Origin: Clostridia bacterium
GTDB lineage: Bacteria > Bacillota > TC1 > JBAXCZ01
Reading direction: 5' to 3'
Assembly: GCA_037141195.1 (NCBI GenBank)
Contig: JBAXCZ010000004.1
Span: 37,043 to 101,042, forward strand
Length of the DNA stretch: 64,000 bases
In this document: positions 6,177 through 58,926 of the stretch, piece by piece
Numbering within the stretch: position 1 is the stretch's first letter
Layout: each line of letters begins with the position of its first letter
Made by a program: the position numbers and the translations under genes
Notes under the pieces: model-generated
Database searches by the model: none
What the model was told of the DNA's origin: nothing
The model's input: the letters and a program-made list of their open reading frames with translations, nothing else

Positions 6177-6182
6177 TAAGTT

Positions 6183-6352
6183 GCCTGAGAGGTGCGCGTT
6201 TAAGCTTGCAGTATTTAAACCTACATCTATTATTCGGGAGCTCGGGTTCCATTGTGCTGTTGCCTTTATTGGCCGTTTATGTCCAGTGGATAGGGCACCC
6301 ACCTGTTATTACGCAGGGCGTTAAATACTGCGGTTAGCGGCCCCTTGGGTTT
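6183..6352 (+). ncRNA. ssrS: candidate 6S RNA; ends are approximate
   Basis: This is a non-coding stretch of about 170 nt. CCTGAGAGG (6184-6192) pairs with CCCCTTGGG (6341-6349), and GCAGTATTTAAAC (6208-6220) pairs with GTTAAATACTGC (6320-6331). These stems enclose an unpaired central region. The CGGGAGC and ACCCACCT segments resemble B. subtilis 6S-1 as I recall it. Confidence 0.45.
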
Positions 6353-6382
6353 TAATAAAATATAAGAGCTATAATAATAAAA

Positions 6383-45834: not shown

Positions 45835-46842
45835 TTAAACTCTCCCCTCAAGTTTGATATATGGTTTGCACGTTTGCATGACATGGTCAAATTCTGCAGG
45901 AGTTAAGGATTGAGCTCCATCACACAATGCTTCAGCTGGATTATTATGAACCTCAATCATTAGTCCATCAGCTCCGGCTGCAATGCTAGCCTTAGCTAAG
46001 GGTTCAATTAACCAGGTAATACCAGTTGCATGGCTAGGATCAACAATAATTGGCAAATGAGATAAGCGTTTAATTATTGGAACTGCTGCTAAATCCAAAG
46101 TATTGCGAGTCATAGTTTCAAAGGTGCGAATACCACGCTCGCAAAGAATTACATTACTATTACCACCAGCCATAATATATTCAGCACTCATTAGCCATTC
46201 TTCAATAGTATTAGCAAGACCTCTTTTTAAGAGAATTGGTTTATTGCATTCGCCAAGTGCCTTTAAGAGTTCAAAGTTTTGCATATTACGAGCACCAACC
46301 TGAATTAGATCCACATCATCAAAAAGATCTAAGTGATTAATATTCATAATTTCAGTAACGATAGGAAGACCTGTTTCTTTTTTGGCTATACTTAAAAGGC
46401 GCATACCCTCACCGTGTAAACCTTGAAAAGCATATGGTGAACTTCGCGGCTTAAAAGCACCACCACGCAGAAAAGTAGCTCCACTTTTTTTAATTTCTTT
46501 AGCAATCGTAGTCAGCTGATCTTCACTTTCAATAGAACAAGGTCCAGCCATAAAATGGAAGTTACCTGCACCAACAAGTTGATTACCCACAGGGATTAAA
46601 GAGTCTGCTGGATGAAATTTGCGATTGGTTGATTTGTATGGTTCGGAAATGCGTTTTACATCCTCAATAAATGGCAAAGCGCGGAGGTTGTTTACATCTA
46701 AGGCAGTAGTATCCCCAATCAAACCCATAATCGTAGTTTGGACACCTTGACTTAGATGGATAGAAATGCCTTTTTCCTCCATAAATAGCCGTAATTTTTC
46801 AATACTAGCTTGGTCTGTATTTTGTTTCAAAATAATAATCAT
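45835..46842 (-). CDS. aroF: 3-deoxy-7-phosphoheptulonate (DAHP) synthase, type I-beta, with an N-terminal ferredoxin-like regulatory domain
   Basis: The KPRSSPYAFQG and DPSH motifs match KDO8P/DAHP type I-beta enzymes. I prefer the ATG at 46842 (MIIILKQ), after a GGAAAGGTGAG RBS, over the track start at 46896. Confidence 0.88.
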   Translation of the reverse strand: MIIILKQNTDQASIEKLRLFMEEKGISIHLSQGVQTTIMGLIGDTTALDVNNLRALPFIEDVKRISEPYKSTNRKFHPADSLIPVGNQLVGAGNFHFMAGPCSIESEDQLTTIAKEIKKSGATFLRGGAFKPRSSPYAFQGLHGEGMRLLSIAKKETGLPIVTEIMNINHLDLFDDVDLIQVGARNMQNFELLKALGECNKPILLKRGLANTIEEWLMSAEYIMAGGNSNVILCERGIRTFETMTRNTLDLAAVPIIKRLSHLPIIVDPSHATGITWLIEPLAKASIAAGADGLMIEVHNNPAEALCDGAQSLTPAEFDHVMQTCKPYIKLEGRV

Positions 46843-46882
46843 ATAACTCACCTTTCCTTCATATAGAGTACAATAAGATAAG

Positions 46883-46920
46883 AAAAAAGCCACCATTTAG
46901 GATTGCACCTAAATAGTGGC
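46883..46920 (-). terminator. intrinsic terminator (attenuator) in the aroF-tyrA leader
   Basis: On the minus strand, GCCACTATTTAGG-tgcaat-CCTAAATGGTGGC followed by T6. It lies 40 nt upstream of the aroF start. Confidence 0.8.
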
Positions 46921-46994
46921 AAATATATCAAGCATTTGCTCTTACTAGGTGCAACACAATTAGCGTTCACACCTATAAGCATAGGAAGAGAACG

Positions 46995-47036
46995 CTACCT
47001 GTAATAATAAGAGTTTTTAAAAATAATCGCGGACAT
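46995..47036 (-). CDS. 13-codon leader peptide MSAIIFKNSYYYR
   Basis: The minus strand reads ATG TCC GCG ATT ATT TTT AAA AAC TCT TAT TAT TAC AGG TAG. A GAAAGGGG RBS lies 8 nt upstream. Three consecutive Tyr codons end 1 codon before the stop. Confidence 0.6.
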   Translation of the reverse strand: MSAIIFKNSYYYR

Positions 47037-47064
47037 AATAATGACCCCTTTCAATTGCAAACTC

Positions 47065-47093
47065 ATCATAGCACATTTGTTTTTTCTTGACAA
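47065..47093 (-). promoter_or_regulatory. promoter of the aroF-tyrA leader
   Basis: On the minus strand, TTGTCA, a 17-nt spacer, then TATGAT. Confidence 0.5.
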
Positions 47094-47196
47094 GTAGAAA
47101 GAAGTGTCTTTCTTTTTCATTGCTGAAGAAAGCAAAGTAGATTATAATCAAAATATATTTAAGTAAAATATTAAGAGCATATTAGGAGGCTTAGCC

Positions 47197-48552
47197 ATGG
47201 CAATAATCATCAAGAATGGAAGCGTAGTAACAGAAAAAGAAGTTGCAACAGTGGACTTAAAGATAGAGGGTGAAAAAATAACTTTTATTGCAAAAGATAT
47301 CTTAGCCTCACCTGAGGATACAATAATTGATGCCACGGGAAAAATCGTCATGCCAGGTGGTATTGATGCTCATGTGCATTATTATATGTTGTCAGGGGAT
47401 GAACGCACTATTGATTCTTTTGAAAGTGCTTCTAAAGCAGCAATTATGGGAGGGGTTACCAGCGTAGTAGATTACGCTGAACCAGAGCATGAAGCAAATC
47501 TCTTGGAAGTTTTTAAAACACGTCTTAATGAAGCAAACAAACATATTTTTACAGATTTCAATCTACATATGGTAGTGAATGATAGTTTTGCTTATAGCCT
47601 AGATGAACTTACTAAAGTAAGAGCAGCAGGTATGAACTCACTGAAAATTTTCACAACATATGGTAGCTCTAGAACATACGAGGCAAACATTACCAAGCTT
47701 TTAGTAGCAGCAAAGGCAGCCGGAATGTTTGTGACAATCCATGCTGAAGATGATGATACGGTTGAACAAGCAAAGAAAGCTCTAATCGCAGCAGGCAAAG
47801 CAACACCTGCTTATCATGGCGAATGCAGACCACTAGCAGCAGAGCTGATTGCTGTAAAAAATTTAATTGAAATGGCTAAAGCAGCAGATGCAACCATCTA
47901 TATAGTTCACACATCTTCCGGTTCTGCAGCAAGTTTGATGAGAAATGCTCAACTTGCAGGAGTTGAGATTTACGGTGAAACCTGCCCGCATTATTTAGTC
48001 TTAGATCTGAACCTTTTTAAAGGTGAGCATGGTCAATGGATGATTATGTCTCCTCCTCTGCGCCAAAAAGAAGAACAGCGTGAGCTTTGGGAAGCACTAG
48101 CTGATGGTACAATAGAAAGCATCACTACAGATCATTGTTCCTTTTCAGTAGCGCAAAAAGAAAGTGCAAAAACATGTTATGAAACTAAAGGTGGTATTCC
48201 AGGTACAGAAACCATGTTGCCGATTATCTTTAGTGAAGGAGTGCAAAAAGGTAGAATCAGTTTAGAAAAATTTGTGCAAATATGCTCAACTAATCCAGCA
48301 AAACGCTTTGGTTTATATCCAACAAAAGGTGTTCTAGCAGTTGGAAGTGATGCAGATGTGACAATTATTGATCCGGAAAAAAAGGTAGTATTACAAGGTA
48401 AAGAGTTACATTCTTTAGCGGGCTACACACCTTTCGAAGGCTTACAGGTGCAGGGATATCCTGTATTTACAATGCTGAGAGGAAAAATTATGATGGAGAA
48501 CGGTAGTTTTTTAGCAGAAATGCCAACAGGAAAGTTTATACCAGTTAAATAA
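47197..48552 (+). CDS. cyclic amidohydrolase (D-hydantoinase/dihydropyrimidinase, HyuA-like)
   Basis: GGIDAHVHYYM metal-binding motif and a 451-aa hydantoinase fold. A TAGGAGG RBS precedes the ORF. Confidence 0.85.
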   Translation: MAIIIKNGSVVTEKEVATVDLKIEGEKITFIAKDILASPEDTIIDATGKIVMPGGIDAHVHYYMLSGDERTIDSFESASKAAIMGGVTSVVDYAEPEHEANLLEVFKTRLNEANKHIFTDFNLHMVVNDSFAYSLDELTKVRAAGMNSLKIFTTYGSSRTYEANITKLLVAAKAAGMFVTIHAEDDDTVEQAKKALIAAGKATPAYHGECRPLAAELIAVKNLIEMAKAADATIYIVHTSSGSAASLMRNAQLAGVEIYGETCPHYLVLDLNLFKGEHGQWMIMSPPLRQKEEQRELWEALADGTIESITTDHCSFSVAQKESAKTCYETKGGIPGTETMLPIIFSEGVQKGRISLEKFVQICSTNPAKRFGLYPTKGVLAVGSDADVTIIDPEKKVVLQGKELHSLAGYTPFEGLQVQGYPVFTMLRGKIMMENGSFLAEMPTGKFIPVK

Positions 48553-48702
48553 TACCTATAATAATTAAATAGAATTTAAAAAAATAGCTTTTATTTTTAG
48601 AAACTATAAGCTATAATAGGGCAGTAGTATGATTGAAACTTAGCAATATGCAGCATATTAGCTGAAAAATGAAGAGATAATATACATTTAGGAGGAAAAT
48701 TA

Positions 48703-49644
48703 ATGTCTAAAGGAACAGTAGTAGTAGCATTAGGCGGAAACGCAATTTTAAAACCAAAGCAAGCAGGTACAATCGAGGAACAAATGGCTAATGTCAATGA
48801 AGCTTGTCACAATATCGCAAATTTGATTGAGCAGGGTTATGATGTAGTTATTGCCCATGGTAATGGACCACAAGTTGGCAATATTCTTTTACAGAACGCA
48901 GCAGCACGCAAGGATGTACCAGCAATGCCGTTAGAAGTATGTGGTGCAGAGAGCCAAGGCTTAATTGGTTATATGATTCAACAAAACATGCGCAAAGAAT
49001 TACGCAAAAAAGGTATCGATAAGCCAGTAGCAACAGTACTTACACAAGTAATTGTAGATGCTAATGATGCTGCCTTCAAAAATCCAACAAAACCAATTGG
49101 TGCTTTTTATAGCGAAGCAGAAGCTAAAGAGAACATGGAGAAAAAAGGCGAAACTTGGAAAGAGGATTCTGGTAGAGGATGGAGAAAAGTTGTAGCTTCT
49201 CCTATGCCAATAGATGTAGTTGAGCTTGCAACCGTTAAAACCCTAATCGCAGCAGGAACTGTTGTTATTACTATTGGTGGAGGTGGCATTCCAGTTATCT
49301 TGAAAGACGGAGATTTAGTGGGAGTAGAAGCTGTGATTGATAAAGATTTAGCTAGTGCATTATTAGCTAAAGAATTAGATGCTGATATTCTCTGCATCGC
49401 AACTGATGTTGCTAATGTAGCTATTAATTTTGGCAAACCTGATCAAAAGAACCTAGAAACAATTACAGTAGCTGAAGCTAAAGCCTATGATGCTGATGGT
49501 CAATTTGGTAAAGGTAGCATGGGTCCTAAAGTACAAGCAGTTGTCAGCTTCGTTGAACATGGTGGTACAGGACTAATTACTGCCTTAGCTAACCTTAAAG
49601 ATGCAGTAACAGCAAACGCTGGCACAAAAATTATCAAAGGGTAA
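48703..49644 (+). CDS. arcC: carbamate kinase
   Basis: VVALGGNAI, HGNGPQVG and GGGGIPV motifs. Confidence 0.92.
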   Translation: MSKGTVVVALGGNAILKPKQAGTIEEQMANVNEACHNIANLIEQGYDVVIAHGNGPQVGNILLQNAAARKDVPAMPLEVCGAESQGLIGYMIQQNMRKELRKKGIDKPVATVLTQVIVDANDAAFKNPTKPIGAFYSEAEAKENMEKKGETWKEDSGRGWRKVVASPMPIDVVELATVKTLIAAGTVVITIGGGGIPVILKDGDLVGVEAVIDKDLASALLAKELDADILCIATDVANVAINFGKPDQKNLETITVAEAKAYDADGQFGKGSMGPKVQAVVSFVEHGGTGLITALANLKDAVTANAGTKIIKG

Positions 49645-49770
49645 GCAGCGATTTAGTCAAGAAAGATTAGATGTCTATATAGATGTCTATAGCTTTTTAC
49701 AACCGCTGAAATAAAATGTCTAATTGAGTTAAATAATACTAAAATTTCTGGAAATATTTTAAAATAATAC

Positions 49771-49799
49771 TTCCAATAGCATGAATTATCAGTTATAAT
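49771..49799 (+). promoter_or_regulatory. putative promoter of the ygeW-like operon leader
   Basis: TTCCAA, a 17-nt spacer, then TATAAT. Confidence 0.35.
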
Positions 49800-49882
49800 A
49801 GCTTGGAAGAGAAGAATAAAACTAAATATGTCGCAAATGGGATTCGGAACCGGGAACCGTATACCAGACAAAGTAGCCCTTT

Positions 49883-49919
49883 AAGAGCATTGCCGGTTTT
49901 AATCGGTGATGCTCTTTTT
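49883..49919 (+). terminator. leader terminator upstream of the ygeW-like gene
   Basis: AAGAGCAT-TG-CCG-gttttaat-CGG-TG-ATGCTCTT followed by TTT. It lies 88 nt before the start codon. Confidence 0.7.
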
Positions 49920-50006
49920 CGACGAAATAGCCCGAAAAACATGATTTAAATTCCCATTAGGGATTTAAAATAAATTTAGGAAAATAGTCAGGAGGAATTG
50001 AGACCA

Positions 50007-51020
50007 ATGAACACACTTTTAAAAGGCAAACATTTTTTATGTGAGCAAGATTGGACAAACGAGGATTACGACACATTATTTAAGGTGATTGAAAGATTGA
50101 AAATGGAATATGCTATGGGCATTGACCATGAATTCTGCAAGAACAAATCTTTATTTATGTTGTTCTTTGAAGAATCAACCAGAACAAGAAATGCATTTGA
50201 GTGCGGTATTACCCAATTAGGCGGACACGGTAACTATTTAACTCCAAGCATGACACAAATCAGCCATGGTGAAACACCAAAAGATACTATGGAAGTATTA
50301 AGCCGTATGGGTCACGGTCTTGGCGTAAGAACAACAGTTAAGGGTGGCCAAGTATACATGAGAAAATTAGCTGAGCACAGCAAAATTCCTGTATACAATA
50401 TGCAATGCGATATTTGGCATCCAACACAATCATTAGCTGACATCGTAACTATCCGTGAAAAATTCGGTGCTGACTTAAGAGGCAGAAAATTCGTTATTTC
50501 TTGGACTTCTGCTCCAAACTACATTCGCCCATTATCAATGGCAAACAGCTTAGTATCCTTAATGCCACGTTTTGGTATGGATGTTGTACTTGCTCATCCA
50601 AAAGGTTTTGAATTAGATGAGATTGCTTTACAATATGCTAAAGAGAATGCTGTTCGTTACGGCGGAACATTCAAAATCGTTAACGATATGGACGAAGCTG
50701 TAAAAGATGCTGATGTTGTATACGCTAAAGGTTGGGGCCCAGTTAATACAACTGGCGATGGCGAAAGCCCTGAAAGCTTAGCAGCTGGTCTTGCAATGAT
50801 CAATGCTAACCCAGGTTGGGTAGTAACAGCTCAGAAAATGGCTCTTGCTAAACCAACAGCTATCTACATGCACTGCATGCCAGCTGACCGTGATATCGAG
50901 GTTACTTCTGAAGTTATGGATGGACCACAATCAGTACTTTATGATCAAGCTGAAAACAGAATGCACACAGTTAAAGCATTAATGGCTTTAACTATGGGTA
51001 ATGTACAAAGCAGAAGATAA
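50007..51020 (+). CDS. carbamoyltransferase, YgeW-like (oxamate/ornithine carbamoyltransferase superfamily)
   Basis: The ESTRTR carbamoyl-phosphate motif, an SHGET block resembling YgeW, and HCMP. I prefer the ATG at 50007 over the TTG at 49998. Confidence 0.8.
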   Translation: MNTLLKGKHFLCEQDWTNEDYDTLFKVIERLKMEYAMGIDHEFCKNKSLFMLFFEESTRTRNAFECGITQLGGHGNYLTPSMTQISHGETPKDTMEVLSRMGHGLGVRTTVKGGQVYMRKLAEHSKIPVYNMQCDIWHPTQSLADIVTIREKFGADLRGRKFVISWTSAPNYIRPLSMANSLVSLMPRFGMDVVLAHPKGFELDEIALQYAKENAVRYGGTFKIVNDMDEAVKDADVVYAKGWGPVNTTGDGESPESLAAGLAMINANPGWVVTAQKMALAKPTAIYMHCMPADRDIEVTSEVMDGPQSVLYDQAENRMHTVKALMALTMGNVQSRR

Positions 51021-51227
51021 TTATTAACTAAATATTTTATTGTATTTATGGAACGGGAAGGGCAATGCGCTTCCCGTTTCTAATATAACTAATAACTAGG
51101 TCATACAAACTACTAAATAATTCTATTACAAAGAAAATTAAAGCTGAATATTTTTTAACAAAACTAACTTTGAAAATTAGCTACATCTGTAGCTTTTTAT
51201 ATTACTCTGTTCTTGAGAGGAGATTTA

Positions 51228-52541
51228 ATGATGGCAACTATATTAAAAGGCGCTTGGGTTATGACTCGCGAAGGTTTGAAAAAAGATTGGGGAGTTAAAG
51301 TAGAGGGCAACAAAATTGTAGAAGTTGGACCTAATGCATCACTAACCATGCAAGAAGGAGATAAAATTGCCGACCATACAGAGCAAATTATTATGCCTGG
51401 GTTTATCAATGGTCATCAGCACATGTACGGAGTTTTATCCCACGGAATTACAACTGAAGCTTTGGTTACAGAATTCTCTAGCTTTTTAGATGATTTTTGG
51501 TGGCCCTATGTGGAAGATCGTCTTGATCATCAAATAGTAGAAACAACTAGTCGTTGGGCATGTGTAGAAATGATTAGAAGTGGAATAACTTCCTTCATGG
51601 ATGTATTAGAAGGACCTAATTCTATTCCAGGTGCCTTAAATGTGGAAAAAAAGGTTATTGAAGAGGCTGGACTCAGAGGTATTCTTACCTTCGAAGCTTG
51701 TCAACGCATGAGTGAAGCTAACGCACAACTTGGCTTAAAAGAAAATTATGATTTTTGCAAAGCAAATAATTCCGAAGACGGATTAATCAAAGGGATGATG
51801 TGTATACATACGCTCTTTACAGGCTCTAAAGAATATGTAATGCAAGCAAAAAAAATGGCAGATGAACTTGGTGCTGATATCCATATGCATATGTCTGAAA
51901 GTGTTTATGAGCCTAATTGGTGCTTGGATAAATACGGGAAAAGAACCGTTGATGTATATAATGAAATAGGCTTCCTCGATAATAAAGTATTCGCTTCACA
52001 AGCAGTACAAGTGGAGCCAGCAGAATTGGATATCTTAGCAGAAAAAGGTACCCGTTTAGTTTCTATGCCCCTCTCTAATTGCGAGGTTGGCGGAGGTTTT
52101 GCTCCCGTACCTGGGATGCTAGAGCGCGGAATCAAGGTAGGTCTTGGAACTGATGGATATGTGAATAATTTCTTTGAAGTAATGCGGGGTGCATTTTTAA
52201 TGCACAAAGCAGTACACCAAAACCCCATGGTGATGCCAGCACAAGTTACCTATGAAATGGCTACTTGGAGAGGTGCAGAGGCAATGGGCTTTAATGATGT
52301 TGGCGCTTTAGAGGTTGGCAAAAAAGCGGATTTATTCACAATGAATATCGATACACCAACCCCAATTAATGAACATAACTGCTATGACCAAATCATACTA
52401 TTTAGAAATCCAAGTGATATTACAGATGTAATGGTTGATGGTAAATGGATAGAACAAGCTGGAGAATTACTAACAATAGATGAAAAAGCAGCGAAAGTGG
52501 CAACCAGAGCATGTGCAACAAAATTCTGGACATTAAGCTAA
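51228..52541 (+). CDS. SsnA-like aminohydrolase (COG0402 amidohydrolase)
   Basis: PGFINGHQHMYG metal-binding motif. The ATG at 51228 follows a GAGAGGAG RBS. Confidence 0.8.
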   Translation: MMATILKGAWVMTREGLKKDWGVKVEGNKIVEVGPNASLTMQEGDKIADHTEQIIMPGFINGHQHMYGVLSHGITTEALVTEFSSFLDDFWWPYVEDRLDHQIVETTSRWACVEMIRSGITSFMDVLEGPNSIPGALNVEKKVIEEAGLRGILTFEACQRMSEANAQLGLKENYDFCKANNSEDGLIKGMMCIHTLFTGSKEYVMQAKKMADELGADIHMHMSESVYEPNWCLDKYGKRTVDVYNEIGFLDNKVFASQAVQVEPAELDILAEKGTRLVSMPLSNCEVGGGFAPVPGMLERGIKVGLGTDGYVNNFFEVMRGAFLMHKAVHQNPMVMPAQVTYEMATWRGAEAMGFNDVGALEVGKKADLFTMNIDTPTPINEHNCYDQIILFRNPSDITDVMVDGKWIEQAGELLTIDEKAAKVATRACATKFWTLS

Positions 52542-52559
52542 AATTTAGGAGGTGGAATT

Positions 52560-54902
52560 ATGCCACTCATGGGAAAGAAAAAGTTTAATGTAATTAATCA
52601 AGCAAAAAAGCGAGTAGATGCAGCCGATAAAGTTACAGGTCGGGCAAAATATGCTGGAGATGTAGTTTTTCAAGATATGCTCATTGCAGGTTGTTTACAC
52701 GGTCATAGAGCACATGCTAAAGTTGCAAAAATAGATACAAGCAAAGCAAAAGCTCTTGACGGAGTACACGCAGTTTTAACTGCCGCAGATATTTTAAAAC
52801 CACAAAGCTGGGCAGATTACTATTATATTACAGACCATGTGAAATATATTGGAGATGTTGTGGCGATTGTTGCAGCAGAAACAAAAGAAATCTTAGAAGA
52901 TGCCCTAAAGGCTATCGAAGTAGAATATGAGGATATGCCAGGAGTCTTTACAGTGGATGAAGCTTTACAAGCAGATGCACCGCAAATTCGCGAAAAAGGT
53001 GTAGGCTTAGTAGACGGCATTCCAACTAAAGGCACTAAAGGAAATATCTTTTTTGAAAGCTATTATGCTTTAAGGAAAGGCAATATAGCAGAAGGCTTTG
53101 CACAGTGCGATGTAGTGATAGAAAAAGAATACCGCACACAGTTTGTAGAACATGCTTATATTGAGCCAGAAGCAGTAATAGCCATCTCAGATCCCTTTGA
53201 TGGATTAATGACAGTGCATGCTTCCTCGCAAAATCCTTACTTTACCAGACGCTATGTGGCTGATGCCCTAGGTATTACCATGAATAAAGCGAGAATTGTT
53301 CAGCGTACACTTGGTGGATCATTTGGCGGCAAAGAAGAATTAGTAGGCTTGATTGCAGGCAGAGCAGCTATTCTTGCTAAAGCAACTGGCAGACCTGTTC
53401 GCTTAGTTGTTAGCAGAGAAGAATCAATGATAGAAAGCCCTAAGCGTCACCCATTTAAGTTCAATTACAAAATTGGGGCAACCAAAGCTGGGCAGATTTT
53501 AGCATTAGAGGGAATACTTGTTGATAATAGTGGAGCATATAATAACCAAACACAATTCTTGAATTGTAGAGCAATGATTCACTCAGCTGGCCCATATAAT
53601 ATTCCCAATATAAAAACAGATACTTATGGAGTATTTACCAATAATGTACATTCTGGTGCTTTCAGAGGCTATAGCTCACCCCAGGTAATTTTTGCTGGAG
53701 AGCAATTGATTGAAGAGTTAGCAGAAGCATTAAATATGGATATCGTAGAATTAAAACGCAAAAATATCTTAAGATATGGTGATTTAACAGCTACTAGTCA
53801 GCGGCTATCTCAGGAAACAATCTTTGCTGATATGATGGAAGATGTCATAGCTAAAACGGATTATCAAGCAAAGTTTGCAGCAAATGCAGTGCAAACTGGG
53901 GAAATAAGAAAAGGCGTTGGACTTGTTACTTGTTACCGCGGAGCAGGCTTAGGAGCAGAAACAGCAGATGCTGGCGGTTCCTTAGTAACGGCCTTAGAAG
54001 ATGGTAGCTTTATCATAAATTCCGGTATCACAGAAAATGGTCAAGGATTAAAAACTGCATATACACAAATTGCAGCAGAGGCAATGGGCATCAAGTTTGA
54101 AGATATCAATTTAATGGGTATAGATACCCACTCCGTTGCCGATAGTGGAATGACAGTTGCGTCAAGAGGCACGGTAATGGCAGCTCAATCCATGAAAAAA
54201 GCTGGAGCATCAATGAAAAAGCTCTTACTGGAAACTGCTAGAATGCTGCTTTCAGCTACCTCCTTAGAAGAAGTGGATATGATAGATAGTGTGGCTTTTG
54301 TTATTGGACAGCCAGAGCGTAGTATCTCTGTAGCCGCTATCAATAATTGTCGTCTTTGGACAGGCAAACAATTATCCGTTTATGAATGGAATGAGCCAAA
54401 AGAACTCTTAATGAACCACCATACCGGTCAAGGAAATGCCTTCCCAACCTATGCTTATGGAGTATGCGTAGCTGAAGTTGAGGTAGATACAGCAACTGGT
54501 TATGTTGATGTTAAAAAAGTAACATCAGCTCATGATTTAGGTACAGTTATAAATCCAGATACAGTAAAAGGTCAAATCTATGGCGGTATAGCTATGGGTA
54601 TGGGTTTTGCAACCACAGAAGAAATTGAAGTAAGTCAAGGTAAAGTTGGCAATCACAACTTTGATTCATATATTTTCCCTACATCAATGGATATGCCAGA
54701 AATGGACGCCATACTTTACGAGTGTGAGGATCCTGAAGGAACATACGGTGCAAAAAGTGTGGGAGAACCTGCAACTGAAGCTGTAGGTGCAGCAATAGCA
54801 CTTGCCATTGCTAACGCCACAGGTAAACGCATTAAAAGATTACCTGCAGATTTAGAAAGAGTATTGCTTGGAAAGAGTTTGAGAGCAGGAGGTGACGCTT
54901 AA
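52560..54902 (+). CDS. molybdopterin-binding subunit of a xanthine dehydrogenase-family enzyme (XdhD-like)
   Basis: VDAADKVTGRAKYAGD a/b-hammerhead N-terminus, GGSFGGK and the C-terminal GEP motif. The ORF is 780 aa. Confidence 0.9.
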   Translation: MPLMGKKKFNVINQAKKRVDAADKVTGRAKYAGDVVFQDMLIAGCLHGHRAHAKVAKIDTSKAKALDGVHAVLTAADILKPQSWADYYYITDHVKYIGDVVAIVAAETKEILEDALKAIEVEYEDMPGVFTVDEALQADAPQIREKGVGLVDGIPTKGTKGNIFFESYYALRKGNIAEGFAQCDVVIEKEYRTQFVEHAYIEPEAVIAISDPFDGLMTVHASSQNPYFTRRYVADALGITMNKARIVQRTLGGSFGGKEELVGLIAGRAAILAKATGRPVRLVVSREESMIESPKRHPFKFNYKIGATKAGQILALEGILVDNSGAYNNQTQFLNCRAMIHSAGPYNIPNIKTDTYGVFTNNVHSGAFRGYSSPQVIFAGEQLIEELAEALNMDIVELKRKNILRYGDLTATSQRLSQETIFADMMEDVIAKTDYQAKFAANAVQTGEIRKGVGLVTCYRGAGLGAETADAGGSLVTALEDGSFIINSGITENGQGLKTAYTQIAAEAMGIKFEDINLMGIDTHSVADSGMTVASRGTVMAAQSMKKAGASMKKLLLETARMLLSATSLEEVDMIDSVAFVIGQPERSISVAAINNCRLWTGKQLSVYEWNEPKELLMNHHTGQGNAFPTYAYGVCVAEVEVDTATGYVDVKKVTSAHDLGTVINPDTVKGQIYGGIAMGMGFATTEEIEVSQGKVGNHNFDSYIFPTSMDMPEMDAILYECEDPEGTYGAKSVGEPATEAVGAAIALAIANATGKRIKRLPADLERVLLGKSLRAGGDA

Positions 54903-55765
54903 TGTTTAGATTTACTTATGAGCGCCCGACTACAATAGCAGATGCCTGTGCAATACTAGCTGCTAGCAGCGGTAAAGCAAAGGTCATCGCGGGTGGAACT
55001 GACTTAATTATTGGACTCAGAGATGAAGATAAAAAAGTTGCCCATGTAGAAAAGGTGGTAGATATTACCCATATCGCAGCCTTAAAGTATATAAAAACAG
55101 ATGGTGAAGTGATTCGTGTGGGAGCATTAGTAACCCATGATGAGATTTTTAATTCACCTATCCTTAAATCTAGCGTTCCATTTTTTACAGAAGCAACAAA
55201 TACTGTTGGGTCACCACAAATTAGGCATAGAGGAACAATTGGCGGAAGTATATGTAATGCTTCACCAGCGGCAGATCCAGTGCCACCACTTATTGCCTTA
55301 GATGCAGAAGTGACACTTATCAGCGCTAAAGGCAAAAGAATTATGAAACTAGCAGACATTTATGACCGTCCCTATAAGCCAACAATAGGCACAGATGAAC
55401 TCTTAACAGAAGTGAGCTTTAAGGTTCCAGCAGGGGCTAAAACGGCTTTCGTCAAGCTGGGCAGAAGAAAAGCCTTAGCTATTGCGAGAATGAATGTAGC
55501 AGTACTGGCGGTAAAAAAAGCAGGGATTGTAGAGGATATTCGAATTGTGCCTGGTTCAGTTTTACCAAAAACAATGCGAGTAGAGGCTGCAGAAGCTTTA
55601 CTAATAGGAAAGCAAGCAACTCAAGAGACAATTGCCCAAGCTGCAAGAAAAGTAGCTGAGGTAATGCTAGAAATGTCTGGAGTTCGTTGGTCTACACCAT
55701 ATAAAGAGCCTGTAATTGAAGCCTTAACAAGAAGAGCATTAGCTCAAGCTTTGGAGGTGGAATAG
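54902..55765 (+). CDS. FAD-binding subunit of a xanthine dehydrogenase-family enzyme (YgfM/CoxM-like)
   Basis: The AGGTDL and GTIGGS motifs are present. The start overlaps the upstream stop. Confidence 0.88.
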   Translation: MFRFTYERPTTIADACAILAASSGKAKVIAGGTDLIIGLRDEDKKVAHVEKVVDITHIAALKYIKTDGEVIRVGALVTHDEIFNSPILKSSVPFFTEATNTVGSPQIRHRGTIGGSICNASPAADPVPPLIALDAEVTLISAKGKRIMKLADIYDRPYKPTIGTDELLTEVSFKVPAGAKTAFVKLGRRKALAIARMNVAVLAVKKAGIVEDIRIVPGSVLPKTMRVEAAEALLIGKQATQETIAQAARKVAEVMLEMSGVRWSTPYKEPVIEALTRRALAQALEVE

Positions 55766-56230
55766 ATGGAAAAAATCGGATTAAAAATGATCGTTAATGG
55801 CACACCTGTTAGTGTTGAGGTCAGCCCATTTGCCAGATTATTAGATGTATTAAGAGAAGATTTGCACCTAACTGGAACCAAAGAAGGTTGCGGAGTTGGT
55901 GAATGTGGTGCCTGCACCGTGATTGTTGACGGGGAAACAGTGAATACCTGTCTAACCTTAGCGGCTTCAATGGAGGGTAAATGCATTACAACAATTGAGG
56001 GAGTAGCAGCAAATGAAGAGCTTCACCCAATTCAACAAGCATTTATTGATTATGCAGCATTGCAATGTGGGTTTTGCACACCGGGCTTAGTGTTGAGTGC
56101 CAAAGCTTTATTAGATAAAACTCCACACCCAAGCAAAGAAGAAATCAAAGTAGCAATATCTGGTAATTTGTGCCGTTGCACCGGCTATCAGCAAGTTGTA
56201 GAGGCAATAGAAGCAGTGGCAAATAGGTAA
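55766..56230 (+). CDS. (2Fe-2S)-binding subunit of a xanthine dehydrogenase-family enzyme
   Basis: GCGVGECGACTV and QCGFCTPG...CRCTGY motifs. Confidence 0.92.
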   Translation: MEKIGLKMIVNGTPVSVEVSPFARLLDVLREDLHLTGTKEGCGVGECGACTVIVDGETVNTCLTLAASMEGKCITTIEGVAANEELHPIQQAFIDYAALQCGFCTPGLVLSAKALLDKTPHPSKEEIKVAISGNLCRCTGYQQVVEAIEAVANR

Positions 56231-56310
56231 AACAGTTTAACCTTTGATGTTAAACTTTTGCAAATACTACAAACAAAAAAAATTCATAGAAAAATTTGGA
56301 GGTGCATTTG

Positions 56311-58926
56311 ATGGACTTAAAACAAATCAAATGGAAAAAAGACTTACCTAAAGATTTTGCAGGAGCAGATATCTCTGCAGAATTTTGTGGCGTAAAATTA
56401 CAAAGCCCAATCATTCTTTCTTCAGGCCCACTTTCCTTTGCTGCCGAGGGCTTAATTCGTGCCCACGAAGCAGGAGCAGGCGCAGTAGTTACAAAAACCA
56501 TCAGGTTGGATAGAGCAATCAATCCGTATCCACACATTGCAGCCATGAACAGTGATTCCTTAATCAACTGTGAAAAATGGGCTGACAGTGACCGACTTGT
56601 TTGGTATGAAAGAGAAATTCCTATGACCAAAGCCGCAGGTGCAGTAGTTATAGCCAGCGTAGGTCATACCTTAGAAGAATCTGCTAACATAGTAGCAGAT
56701 TGCCAAAAGGCTGGAGCAGATTTTATCGAATTAGTATCCTATACAGATGATACCATGATTCCAATGTTAGCTGATGCTTTGAAAAAAGTAACAATTCCAA
56801 TTATTTGCAAGCTTTCCAGCAACTATCCTGCATGGGCAGATCCTGTGGGTACTGCTAAGCGTTGCTTAGATATGGGAGCAGCTGGTATTGCAGCAATCGA
56901 CTCTATTGGACCAACCCTGAAAATTGATATTTTCAATAAAAAACCTGCAATGGGTTCTGAGGATGGTTTTGGCTGGATGTCTGGCGGTGCCATGCGACCT
57001 ATCTCCATGAGGATTAACTCACTTATTGCTCGTCTCGGCTTTGAAAACCTTAACCTTTATGGTATTGGTGGCGTGACCTGCGCAGAAGATATGGTAGAAT
57101 ACTTAATGACAGGCTGTAAAGCTGTGGGCGTTTGCTCAATTGGTATTATTAAAGGTATCGAATACTTCACAACCTTGAATAAAGATTTAGCAGTACTCTT
57201 AAAACAATTAGGCTATAACTCCTTACAAGAAGCAATTGGTGTAGCACTGCCTAATTTCCCTACAAAAGGTGCTTATCCAGTAAAAGGGGAGTATGAAAAA
57301 AATGTAGAAGCAGACTTAAAAATTCAGTTCAAGTATGAGCCTGACTTTGCACCTTGTCAAGAAACCTGCCCAGCAGGCGTAGATGTACCTCTCTATGTTG
57401 ATCAAGTGCGTCGCGGAAGTTATCTCGATGCCTACAACACAGTAAGTGTAAATAATCCATTCCCAGCTATTTGCGGTAGAGTATGCGATCATCCATGTGA
57501 GGCTAATTGCCGTCGTGGTAAAGTTGATGAGCCTATCTCCATCCGTTTAATCAAGCGTGCAGCTTCTGATGAAGTTTACGCTGCTTGTGGCAATGCACTT
57601 CCACTGCCAGCAATGCTTACAAAAAATGGCAAAAAAATTGCCATCATTGGGGCAGGACCAGCAGGACTTTCTGCAGCTTACTATCTGGCGCGCAAAGGCT
57701 ATCAAGTTAAGGTTTTCGAGAGTCTGCCAGTTGCAGGTGGGATGCTTGCAGTAGGTATTCCAGATTATCGCTTACCAAGAGATATTATGAATAAAGAAAT
57801 AGCTCGTTTAGAAGCTATGGGCGTAGAAATTCGTTTAGGCGTAACCGTAGGCAAGGACATTTCTCTTGCTGAGCTTACACAAATGGGTTATGAAAGAATA
57901 TTAATTGCTACAGGCGCACATGGTGACCCTGCAATGGGTGTTGCTGGTGAAGAATTAGCAGGTGTACTTTCAGGCATTAAATTCTTAAAGGATGTAAATT
58001 TAGGACAAATTCGTTTAGATGAGCAAAAAGTAATTGTAGTTGGTGGTGGTAACGTTGCTGTTGACGCTGCTCGTGCAGCATTACGAGTGGGCGCTGCAGA
58101 AGTTACTATTGTTTACCGTCGTGATAAGGCAGCTATGCCTGCCTATGCTGAAGAAATTGAGCATGCAGAGCAAGAAGGAATTAAGTTTGCTTTCTTAGCA
58201 GCACCTGCGGCAATTAAGAACAATGCTTTCTCAGGACTTGATTTTGAATATACACCGATGGTTTTAGGAGAAAAAGATGCTTCAGGCAGACGTTCTCCAA
58301 AAGCTTCTGGAGCAGCAAATGTAACAATGAAGGTTGATGCAGTAATTGCAGCAACAGGACAAAAAGTGATTACAGACTTTATGCCTAAAGTAGTATCACT
58401 AGAATCTGGAGCTACAGCATCTGCAAATATTTATGTAGCTGGTGACTGTGCAACAGGCCCAGCATCTGTGATTAAATCCATTGCCATGGGTCGTAAAGCA
58501 GCAGAAGCTATGGACGCTTCCTTAGGCGGAGACGGCGTAGTAATGGAAGCTATTACAGCAGAGCACCTGCATTTTGTAGATATTGCTGATGATAATAAAC
58601 CTCGCATGCAAGCAAGCTTAATTCCAGTTGCAGACCGTGTACCAGGATTCACTGAAGTGGAAAATGGTTTAGGTTCAAGTAATGCCGCTAAAGAAGCTGA
58701 GCGTTGTATGCATTGCGGTTGCACAAACTGCGGACGTTGTGTAGAAGCTTGCTCATATGATGCTAGAGTAATGGATTTCCCAGGTATGACTATGGACAGA
58801 GATCTTTGCCGTAACTGCGGCTTCTGCCTAACAGTTTGTCCTACAGGCGCATTATCCGGAACAATCGTTACGAAATTCTCTGCAGATGCAGATCAAAAAT
58901 TAAATCAAATAGGTATCTTTAGCTAG
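56311..58926 (+). CDS. YgfK-like multidomain Fe-S flavoprotein: DHODH/DPD-type FMN barrel, GltD-like FAD/NAD(P) module and 2x[4Fe-4S]
   Basis: An N-terminal DHODH-like barrel of about 330 aa, then CPAG...CGRVCDHPCE, then IAIIGAGPAGLSAA, then the C-terminal CMHCGC..CGRC and CRNCGFCLTVCP. The ATG at 56311 follows a GGAGGTG RBS. Confidence 0.8.
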   Translation: MDLKQIKWKKDLPKDFAGADISAEFCGVKLQSPIILSSGPLSFAAEGLIRAHEAGAGAVVTKTIRLDRAINPYPHIAAMNSDSLINCEKWADSDRLVWYEREIPMTKAAGAVVIASVGHTLEESANIVADCQKAGADFIELVSYTDDTMIPMLADALKKVTIPIICKLSSNYPAWADPVGTAKRCLDMGAAGIAAIDSIGPTLKIDIFNKKPAMGSEDGFGWMSGGAMRPISMRINSLIARLGFENLNLYGIGGVTCAEDMVEYLMTGCKAVGVCSIGIIKGIEYFTTLNKDLAVLLKQLGYNSLQEAIGVALPNFPTKGAYPVKGEYEKNVEADLKIQFKYEPDFAPCQETCPAGVDVPLYVDQVRRGSYLDAYNTVSVNNPFPAICGRVCDHPCEANCRRGKVDEPISIRLIKRAASDEVYAACGNALPLPAMLTKNGKKIAIIGAGPAGLSAAYYLARKGYQVKVFESLPVAGGMLAVGIPDYRLPRDIMNKEIARLEAMGVEIRLGVTVGKDISLAELTQMGYERILIATGAHGDPAMGVAGEELAGVLSGIKFLKDVNLGQIRLDEQKVIVVGGGNVAVDAARAALRVGAAEVTIVYRRDKAAMPAYAEEIEHAEQEGIKFAFLAAPAAIKNNAFSGLDFEYTPMVLGEKDASGRRSPKASGAANVTMKVDAVIAATGQKVITDFMPKVVSLESGATASANIYVAGDCATGPASVIKSIAMGRKAAEAMDASLGGDGVVMEAITAEHLHFVDIADDNKPRMQASLIPVADRVPGFTEVENGLGSSNAAKEAERCMHCGCTNCGRCVEACSYDARVMDFPGMTMDRDLCRNCGFCLTVCPTGALSGTIVTKFSADADQKLNQIGIFS

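Follow-up and report, generated by a model that had tools for sequence, protein, structure and literature searches.

A putative tyrosine-sensing leader-peptide attenuator upstream of aroF-tyrA in a Clostridia bacterium

Introduction

Leader-peptide attenuation is textbook matter for Proteobacteria and is regarded as rare in Bacillota, in which T-boxes, TRAP and riboswitches dominate and RNA polymerase is held to run ahead of the ribosomes. The subject of this paper is a transcription leader on the minus strand of a 64,000-nucleotide (nt) stretch of contig JBAXCZ010000004.1 from a Clostridia bacterium; this whole stretch is called the window below, and positions refer to it unless another locus is named. 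The leader precedes aroF and tyrA, encoding a DAHP synthase and a prephenate dehydrogenase, and carries a short open reading frame (ORF) with three successive Tyr codons. An initial annotation, made from the letters of the window, had proposed that the position of a ribosome on this mini-ORF decides between alternative hairpins and, through them, between termination and read-through. The analyses presented here indicate that the leader is probably a ribosome-mediated transcription attenuator by which aroF-tyrA is controlled in response to charged tRNA-Tyr; in the more general sense of a Tyr-sensing leader-peptide attenuator, the assignment is quite likely to be right.

Several described systems come close to this locus. 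The vmlR leader of B. subtilis has been shown experimentally to be a ribosome-mediated transcription attenuator (Takada et al. 2022, PMC9226507). Exclusively before aroF, in Acholeplasma and in unassigned environmental sequences, a predicted upstream ORF (uORF) element named uORFC-13-1 was found, with 24 representatives and a predicted sensing of Phe via a run of U (Brewer et al. 2021, PMC8632094). Leader-peptide attenuators of Bacillota have been predicted or shown for His (PMC2965389, PMC9413887) and, in S. aureus, for Leu (PMC5794164). The C. glutamicum aroR leader (Phe-Tyr-Phe), located before aroF, responds to Phe limitation and not to Tyr according to the account of Neshat et al. (2014) given in PMC11802643. 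A Tyr-tRNA-sensing attenuator for E. coli aroF-tyrA, never substantiated, figures as a hypothesis only where Camakaris (1980) is cited in PMC8632094.

Promoter and leader mini-ORF

The 5' part of the transcription unit contains the following elements.

47093-47088 and 47070-47065, minus strand: sigma-70-type promoter with TTGTCA, a 17-nt spacer and TATGAT, and a TG extension
47052-47045, minus strand: Shine-Dalgarno (SD) sequence GAAAGGGG, 8 nt 5' of the ATG at 47036
47036-46995, minus strand: leader mini-ORF MSAIIFKNSYYYR-stop, 13 codons plus TAG
47026-47021, minus strand: TTATTT within the mini-ORF, a match to the TTNTTT NusG-dependent pause motif
47009-47001, minus strand: Tyr codons TAT TAT TAC, the proposed sensor of charged tRNA-Tyr

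The promoter, which scores 10/12 and is the best promoter-like site within the surrounding 1 kb, lies on the minus strand exactly where the initial annotation had put it, and transcription would start near 47058. The ribosome-binding site (RBS) and the mini-ORF also proved correct in sequence and coordinates; the codons of the latter are ATG TCC GCG ATT ATT TTT AAA AAC TCT TAT TAT TAC AGG TAG. Its Tyr codons stand for the end product of the downstream operon of DAHP synthase and prephenate dehydrogenase. Besides the T-tract of the terminator, the TTATTT in the mini-ORF is the sole instance in the leader of the TTNTTT pause motif defined in PMC9226507, and it is retained in the sister species discussed below (L165, about 2809-2814) though the neighbouring codons 2-8 have diverged to the neutral level. 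One may speculate that it is a device synchronising RNA polymerase with the ribosome.

AT-rich DNA commonly has short ORFs, and this one has just 13 codons with three Tyr. It might therefore be a chance ORF beside an ordinary hairpin-rich 5' untranslated region or a leftover terminator, without a regulatory role. An ORF of at most 45 amino acids with an SD sequence, a start codon and YYY arose in 14 of 5000 dinucleotide-preserving shuffles of the leader, and in 57/5000 when the SD requirement was dropped. Together with the conservation of the structured leader and the family-wide parallel of Tyr/Phe leaders, both treated below, this makes a chance origin very improbable.

RNA helices and terminator

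Downstream of the Tyr codons, five RNA segments can pair into four mutually exclusive helices of near equal stability (-19.9, -17.0, -19.6 and -19.9 kcal/mol). Lengths are given in base pairs (bp).

46997-46961, extended by RNAfold to 47003-46955, minus strand: hairpin 1:2, the protector, 19 bp, -19.9 kcal/mol
46979-46941, minus strand: hairpin 2:3, the anti-antiterminator, 16 bp including G-U pairs, -17.0 kcal/mol
46955-46902, minus strand: structure 3:4, the antiterminator, an 11-bp outer helix plus an inner hairpin, -19.6 kcal/mol
46954-46946, minus strand: segment 3, TTGCACCTA, perfectly complementary to TAGGTGCAA at 46911-46903
46939-46919, minus strand: 7-bp inner hairpin within 3:4
46920-46889, minus strand: stem of the intrinsic terminator (4:5), 13 bp, 6 GC, -19.9 kcal/mol
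46888-46883, minus strand: T6 tract of the terminator

The minimum free energy (MFE) of the 216-nt leader has a z-score of -4.3, and 0/200 shuffles fold as well. The 5' arm of the extended hairpin 1:2 begins at the third Tyr codon and includes the stop codon, which is the first triplet of the hairpin 46997-46961 and so lies within segment 1, as had been claimed; the 3' arm is segment 2. The TAGGTG:CACCTA pairing named in the initial annotation turned out to be the core of the longer 16-bp hairpin 2:3, which can form only while a ribosome covers segment 1. The perfect complementarity between segment 3 and 46911-46903 was borne out, and structure 3:4 sequesters the terminator loop together with part of the terminator 5' arm. 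The terminator itself, at 46920-46883 with its T6 tract, is the sole terminator-like site in the region. An alternative pairing of segment 2 with the terminator 3' arm was considered and rejected: 4 bp are possible only, and the 3' arm is transcribed last.

A search of the window leader with Rfam 15 yielded no match at the gathering score, and at E<=10 the region 46600-47400 gave noise-level snoRNA matches only; T-boxes and the curated leader and riboswitch families are rejected on these grounds. A significant hit of this kind across the region had been named in the initial annotation as evidence against the model. T-boxes are the usual control of Tyr-related genes in Bacillota (PMC1262725), and a UGGU is present in the terminator 3' arm, which would suit a degenerate or atypical Tyr T-box riboswitch. 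The UGGU sits on the wrong arm, the leader of about 170 nt with about 65 nt of ORF has no room for a Stem I, RF00230 had no match at the gathering score in the 64-kb window and none at E<=10 in 46600-47400, and the T-box core motif is absent upstream of 80/80 related aroF genes. A T-box at this place is hardly credible.

Conservation in a sister species

A sister species is represented by the loci L165-L168, the AroF of which (P0003) is 94 % identical to that of the window. The identity at 4-fold degenerate sites is 0.44 both in aroF (n=124) and in tyrA (n=93), which means that the pair is nearly saturated at neutral positions; in TyrA, 67/278 residues differ. Against the neutral value of 44 %, the structured part of the leader is about 90-100 % identical, a sign of strong purifying selection that again argues against a chance ORF beside an unremarkable hairpin. 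The -35 box is identical at 5/6 positions (TTGACA in the sister), the -10 box TATGAT at 6/6 and the 17-nt spacer at 15/17. The SD sequence is the same at 8/8 positions and SYYYR-stop at 18/18, including 9/9 nt of the Tyr codons. Further downstream, identity amounts to 14/16 in segment 2, 6/6 in the ATTGTG linker, 8/10 in segment 3, 12/12 in the inner antiterminator stem, 7/7 in the terminator 5' arm, 8/9 in segment 4, 12/13 in the terminator 3' arm and 6/6 in the T6 tract. Roughly neutral rates were obtained for codons 2-8 of the mini-ORF (13/27), the loop of the inner hairpin (7/11) and the spacer following the terminator (14/23).

It had been suggested that absence of the mini-ORF from relatives keeping the leader would speak against attenuation. 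The sister, which keeps the leader, also keeps an ORF of the same 13-codon length at the same position, (M)FIFSLQSSYYYR-stop, in which a TTG start replaces ATG, codons 2-8 have changed yet contain neither indel nor stop, and SYYYR-stop is identical. A free 5' half, fixed Tyr codons and a constant spacing to the RNA structure form the pattern that is expected of a translated leader peptide.

Between the stop codon and the end of the terminator, 90 helix-paired positions are conserved and 6 changed, versus 7 and 6 of the never-paired positions (Fisher p = 5e-4; p = 1e-6 with neutral flanks added), a test that is biased towards the helices in that these were derived from the window sequence itself. 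Each of the four helices has positions that it alone explains. For 1:2 these are conserved in 23/24 cases, and 18/19 of its pairs are still standard in the sister. The corresponding values are 9/9 positions and 15/16 pairs for 2:3, 17/19 positions and 16/18 pairs for 3:4, and 18/19 positions and 13/13 pairs for 4:5, in which one U.G has become U-A. The positions particular to 2:3 fall within the hairpin 1:2 loop and the GUAAG linker, for the conservation of which there would otherwise be no reason.

Nearly every nucleotide from 47012 to 46883 is conserved, linkers included, as in riboswitches and protein-binding leaders, and compensatory double changes are absent. The leader RNA might accordingly bind a factor in trans, be it a protein, a tRNA or a small molecule, with the mini-ORF being incidental or only modulatory; Bacillota usually use T-box, TRAP-like and PyrR-like systems, and coupling of transcription to translation is thought to be weak in them. 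We consider such a factor distinctly unlikely, as every conserved "linker" position is explained by one of the four helices, and the SD sequence, start, frame and length of the ORF are retained while its 5' codons drift. In addition, YYY matches the operon product, Rfam offers no family even at E<=10, and homologous aroF genes of Clostridia have SD-preceded Tyr/Phe leader ORFs.

Synteny between window and sister breaks directly 5' of the -35 box (window 47094-47200 versus L165 2340-2740). Upstream of the leader, the window has a divergent dihydropyrimidinase gene and the sister an opposite-strand tRNA gene (L165 2598-2671) and a gene for a FAD-dependent protein. Judged by this comparison, conservation extends over promoter, leader and operon as a single unit. 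Searches with the leader by blastn and nhmmer in all 170 loci revealed no homolog besides the sister species; L171 is without the leader.

Some side observations concern these loci. At the 5' end of the sister leader (L165 2779-2820), a hairpin is predicted that sequesters the SD sequence of the mini-ORF (GCUGGAAAUUGAAAGGGG...CAGC); its window equivalent is much weaker, and the hairpin may be a folding artefact. P0004 and P0005 (L169 50-1507; L170 3001-4284) are aroF calls of 485 and 427 amino acids; this leader was not found in the sequence available upstream of them. Each aligns with AroF in two overlapping tblastn segments (e.g. residues 1-198 and 55-334), which points either to an assembly artefact or to a partial duplication within the gene, and their downstream neighbours are DUF3783 and ApbE genes, not tyrA. 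No clear Tyr/Phe leader is present in L170, and L169 has only 49 nt upstream of aroF.

Predicted ribosome-dependent folding

Nascent transcripts were folded with the footprint of a ribosome masked, from -15 to +12 of the A site. Both in the window and in the sister, 1:2 persisted when no ribosome was present or when the A site was on the first Tyr codon (Tyr1), and the MFE structure just before the terminator 3' arm emerges consisted of the 11-bp helix of 3:4 and the 7-bp inner hairpin. When the A site was on the stop codon, segment 1 was covered, the 16-bp hairpin 2:3 was the MFE structure and the outer helix of 3:4 was absent, again in both species. For the window, a mixed prediction was obtained with the A site on Tyr2 and a tie with the A site on Tyr3 (-31.3 versus -31.2 kcal/mol), so that the model depends on a stall at the first hungry codon. 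The claim that stalling at the Tyr codons keeps 1:2 intact stands clearly for the first of these codons, with Tyr2 mixed and Tyr3 undecided between the two folds. A first classifier, based on the fraction of the terminator 5' arm that is paired to anything, was too crude and was replaced; it returned 0.54 for the window in every state as a consequence of spurious pairings with the 5' end.

The equilibrium fold of the full-length leader always contains the terminator, and read-through must therefore be kinetic. The relevant states are near isoenergetic: -35.7 kcal/mol for 1:2 with the antiterminator, -37.2 for 1:2 with the terminator and -38.1 for the anti-antiterminator with the terminator. 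According to a crude direct-path heuristic, the barrier from antiterminator to terminator with segment 2 locked in 1:2 is 18.3 kcal/mol (12.9 kcal/mol to the MFE structure). Once segment 2 is free, the combination of 2:3 and the inner hairpin (-21.5 kcal/mol) is more stable than the antiterminator (-19.6 kcal/mol), and the barrier to the terminator is 2.8 kcal/mol from the former and 8.6 kcal/mol from the latter. In this model, the 3:4 antiterminator would be a kinetic trap of about 18 kcal/mol as long as 1:2 is intact, and termination would face a barrier about 10 kcal/mol lower once segment 2 is free. The proposed sequence of stall, intact 1:2 and read-through on the one hand, and of stop, 2:3 and terminator on the other, agrees with the constrained folding in both species and with these barriers.

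Proposed mechanism and its weighing

The following order of events is proposed. Transcription would begin near 47058, and a ribosome would load onto the 13-codon leader ORF. When Tyr-tRNA is scarce, it would stall at the first Tyr codon with its leading edge at the foot of 1:2; segment 2 would stay locked, and segment 3 would pair with segment 4 once the latter has been made. The 3:4 antiterminator would then be kinetically trapped and RNA polymerase would read into aroF-tyrA. When Tyr-tRNA is plentiful, the ribosome would reach the UAG inside segment 1 and unzip 1:2, upon which the freed segment 2 would capture segment 3 or exchange onto it. Segment 4 would become available, the terminator would fold and transcription would stop at the T6 tract. 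Owing to one extra helix and an ORF shifted about 12-15 nt upstream in comparison with the trp paradigm, a leader that is not translated is predicted to give read-through, not super-attenuation. This specific relay from 1:2 to 2:3 is, in our judgement, somewhat more probable than improbable.

In the window as in the sister, an SD-preceded short ORF lies in the leader of a biosynthetic operon. It contains consecutive codons for the amino acid of that operon (TAT TAT TAC), a terminator stands between it and the first structural gene, and structures that exclude each other according to the position of the ribosome were found in silico in both species. As these comprise all the defining features that can be tested in silico, the element is filed as a leader-peptide transcription attenuator. 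The presence of its sequence features and their conservation follow directly from the comparisons and foldings described above, as does the finding that the switch is coherent in its thermodynamics and kinetics.

Several points weigh against this assignment. All support for it is computational; we infer from it that the ORF is translated, that ribosomes stall at its Tyr codons, that their movement is timed to RNA polymerase and that the operon responds to tyrosine. The mini-ORF has only three Tyr codons, and these overlap the foot of the extended hairpin 1:2 (UACAG:UUGUG), so that their conservation could be partly structural. Only two species have this leader, and changes in the helices affect one partner of a pair (U-A to U.G, U.G to U-A) and never both in a compensatory way, which means that the structure is backed by conservation and not by covariation. 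To these are added the derivation of the helices from the window sequence, the ambiguous states at Tyr2 and Tyr3, the presence of the terminator in every equilibrium fold and the crudeness of the barrier estimates. Finally, Bacillota have been classed as "runaway transcription" organisms (PMC13323073), which creates a problem of timing between ribosome and polymerase unless the polymerase pauses; a single indication, the TTATTT motif, suggests that it may do so in this leader.

Some of the same observations would also suit a leader-peptide attenuator with another logic, one that responds to general translation capacity or to the arrival or release of ribosomes at the stop codon, or that uses pairings outside the MFE structures. 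Stalls at Tyr2 and Tyr3 give no clear prediction, the Tyr codons reach into the foot of 1:2, and the stop state of the sister keeps part of the terminator 5' arm paired (0.54). The in-silico assay is noisy, too: of 76 leaders of the family described in the next section, 11 had the antiterminator in all states and 11 showed other patterns. As a precedent, vmlR responds to stalling in general (PMC9226507). Such a logic would make it a coincidence that YYY, conserved at 9/9 nt, is found directly upstream of a Tyr-pathway operon, and the enrichment in the family is specifically for Tyr/Phe upstream of aroF(-tyrA). If stalling favoured 2:3, moreover, the operon would be off during Tyr starvation, which is physiologically senseless. 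We regard another logic as unlikely and retain the Tyr-sensing attenuator.

Tyr/Phe-rich leader ORFs upstream of aroF in Clostridia

Relatives of AroF with 59-71 % identity were collected from Clostridia genomes and metagenomes, and the regions upstream of the aroF match (loci L001-L160 and L172-L175) were scanned for short ORFs; 154 loci had enough upstream sequence. At least 5 Tyr/Phe in 7 residues were encoded in the sense direction in 82/154 loci and in the antisense direction in 7/154; with a threshold of at least 6 in 7, the numbers were 50 and 0. Examples are MSSSRFGYYYYYVLCSLCRA, MNISDKFFYFYFYFSKK, MKISMINNYYYGYAYYYINSANILLR and MLTVTSTAKYFYYYFSS. The ORFs are located 100-250 nt upstream of aroF(-tyrA), and their hosts include Oscillospirales, Lachnospirales and Blautia hominis. 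Among the strong, distinct leaders, a hairpin with a U-tract follows in 76/79 and an SD-like motif is present in 71/79; tyrA comes after aroF in 59 of the strong-leader loci. The parallel across this family also speaks against a chance origin of the mini-ORF in the window. T-rich, pause-like sequence was considered as the cause of the Tyr/Phe ORFs and rejected, given that the ORF frame beats both other frames in 78/79 strong leaders, that SD-like motifs are frequent and that TAC makes up 46 % of the Tyr codons. No clear relation was seen between the Tyr:Phe ratio and a downstream tyrA (mean Y 4.5/F 4.7 with tyrA; mean Y 4.2/F 5.9 without, n=14).

In the masked-ribosome test, a stall led to the antiterminator and the stop position to the terminator in 49/76 leaders, and in 37 of those 49 the untranslated state was antiterminated as well. 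Rfam searches at the gathering score in 20 related loci revealed no family covering the Tyr/Phe leaders, and no description of such leaders in Clostridia was found in the open-access literature searched, which is not proof of absence. As a side observation, L033 carries a Clostridiales-1 RNA (RF01699, 153 bits) at 1689-1856, about 1 kb upstream of its aroF leader.

These leaders resemble the one in the window in several ways. They precede an AroF with an FXD domain (60-71 % identical), often in an aroF-tyrA operon, and combine an SD-preceded ORF rich in Tyr (and Phe) with a terminator and the same predicted outcome of stalling and stopping. They differ in that no similarity of leader sequence is detectable, and in that most have longer ORFs with 4-9 Tyr/Phe codons, whereas the window has YYY only. 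The stop codon lies 16-35 nt before the terminator in most of them, so that a terminating ribosome can occlude the antiterminator directly; in the window the distance is 77 nt, and the relay from 1:2 to 2:3 is needed. As a tentative reading, somewhat short of an even chance, the window element may be the most compact member of a large undescribed class of Tyr/Phe attenuators of aroF(-tyrA) in Clostridia and related Bacillota, with the untranslated state being ON.

According to the initial annotation, an attenuator with Tyr codons would be unusual for Firmicutes. This is true of the literature and not of the data, in which Tyr/Phe leaders with terminators occur at about half of the 154 Clostridia loci; the window leader is less exceptional than had been held, related leaders being common upstream of Clostridia aroF. 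The breadth of these leaders is the more interesting finding and an apparently undescribed one, and suggests ribosome stalling to be a common means by which gut Clostridia adjust their synthesis of aromatic amino acids. If the class reading is true, amino-acid-sensing coupling of ribosome and polymerase would be widely used in a "runaway" phylum, perhaps via pause motifs within the T-rich runs of Tyr/Phe codons.

Operon, genomic context and source lineage

The structural genes and the RBS of the first are as follows.

46860-46847, minus strand: RBS of aroF, GAAGGAAAGGTGAG
46842-45835, minus strand: aroF, DAHP synthase with an N-terminal ferredoxin-like (FXD) regulatory domain, 335 amino acids
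45833-44997, minus strand: tyrA, prephenate dehydrogenase, 278 amino acids, Pfam PDH_N and PDH_C

Pfam confirmed the functions that had been assigned to the operon, with matches of AroF to DAHP_synth_1 (1.7e-76) and DAHP_snth_FXD (4.2e-20). The GTG start of tyrA is one base past the aroF stop, which indicates translational coupling of the two genes, and the 3' end of the operon is convergent with a DEAD-box helicase gene. The public aroF call has 353 amino acids; its ATG (46896) falls in the terminator 3' arm, and it engulfs the T-tract and the true RBS. This call is probably too long and the real start the ATG at 46842, giving the 335 amino acids at which the sister gene is called. Tyr/Phe leaders go unannotated in metagenome-assembled genomes (MAGs), the one studied here being swallowed by an over-long aroF call.

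Exact matches to the 353-residue call were found in four contigs of the same species, one belonging to MAG GCA_964510155.1 and three coming from metagenomes; their leaders are 100 % identical to that of the window and are uninformative for conservation. Exact-protein look-ups with the 335-residue AroF and a 297-residue TyrA gave no match, and AroF scans of genome and metagenome contigs retrieved relatives at 59-69 % identity only. RNase Y and AroF have one close relative each (97 % and 94 % identity). Beyond the sister, RNase Y identity is 70-75 % (Clostridia, Negativicutes, Thermincola, Oxobacter), and the AroF relatives are Oscillospirales and Lachnospirales. One close relative followed by a drop to about 70-75 % points to a deep, poorly sampled lineage of Bacillota (GC 37-40 %). 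Going by the Clostridia-like relatives of RNase Y and AroF, the organism is not an Acholeplasma.

Purines strongly prevail on the plus strand of the window (GC skew 0.10-0.23, AT skew about 0.1). ORFs of at least 150 amino acids are nearly all on that strand, and aroF-tyrA is among the very few minus-strand operons. A link between purine bias of this type and "runaway transcription" has been drawn (PMC13323073), and finding a ribosome-dependent attenuator here is the more noteworthy for it. A gene cluster for nucleobase catabolism on the plus strand (47197-58926) adjoins the operon. Its genes and other features of the window are:

47197-48552, plus strand: dihydropyrimidinase
48703-49644, plus strand: carbamate kinase
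51213-52541, plus strand: SsnA-like aminohydrolase
52560-54902, plus strand: XdhA-like subunit of xanthine dehydrogenase
56296-58926, plus strand: PreA/GltD-like fusion
6179-6355, plus strand: 6S RNA, 59.9 bits
41366-41809: small tRNA cluster with minus-strand tRNA-Pro(GGG) and plus-strand tRNA-His(GTG) and tRNA-Lys(TTT)

Comparison with known attenuators

The trpL, pheL, hisL, thrL, leuL and ilvL leaders of Proteobacteria share with the window an SD-preceded short ORF with tandem codons for the end product and an early stop, hairpins that exclude one another and an intrinsic terminator ahead of the first biosynthetic gene. The window differs in sensing Tyr, for which no established leader exists, in its Bacillota host and in the lack of a match to an Rfam leader family. 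Its ORF lies about 12-15 nt further upstream of the first hairpin and one extra helix is present, with the predicted result that a stalled ribosome preserves 1:2 instead of breaking a hairpin; the untranslated leader is predicted to read through, whereas those of Proteobacteria super-attenuate.

In C. glutamicum, an aromatic-codon leader peptide, aroR, controls a DAHP synthase operon by ribosome stalling, as is proposed here. As far as the published description of that system goes, it belongs to Actinobacteria and has mixed Phe/Tyr codons, while the window has a pure YYY and includes tyrA. Compared by description, uORFC-13-1 has the same arrangement of promoter, RBS, uORF and adjacent terminator upstream of aroF. 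It also has a run of U, to which TTATTTTT in the window ORF, with one Phe codon, bears a resemblance that is suggestive only; the Phe U-run of uORFC-13-1 and the TTATTT of the window might be the same kind of feature. The representatives of uORFC-13-1 are from Acholeplasma, which the Clostridia-like window does not resemble, and also from environmental sequences of unknown origin.

The vmlR leader resembles that of the window in its architecture, with anti-antiterminator, antiterminator and terminator tiers under a uORF (in silico for the window) and a TTNTTT pause motif. Its signal is translation inhibitors and its target an ABCF resistance gene instead of aroF-tyrA, and its antibiotic-stalled ribosome blocks the anti-antiterminator directly. 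In the window, a stalled ribosome would preserve a fourth hairpin, located upstream, in which the anti-antiterminator strand is locked, and a terminating ribosome would release this strand.

The compact 170-nt switch could serve as a Tyr-responsive part, and the findings are relevant to how aromatic amino-acid metabolism in the gut is modelled and to whether transcription and translation are coupled locally in "runaway" phyla. In conclusion, the class of mechanism is known. What is new here is a putative Tyr-specific switch for which no curated or published family was found, a predicted four-helix relay and predicted read-through when the leader is not translated. If the leader works as predicted, trpL, pheL and hisL would have in it their first clear counterpart for Tyr, and its four-helix relay would invert the usual rule that no translation means termination.

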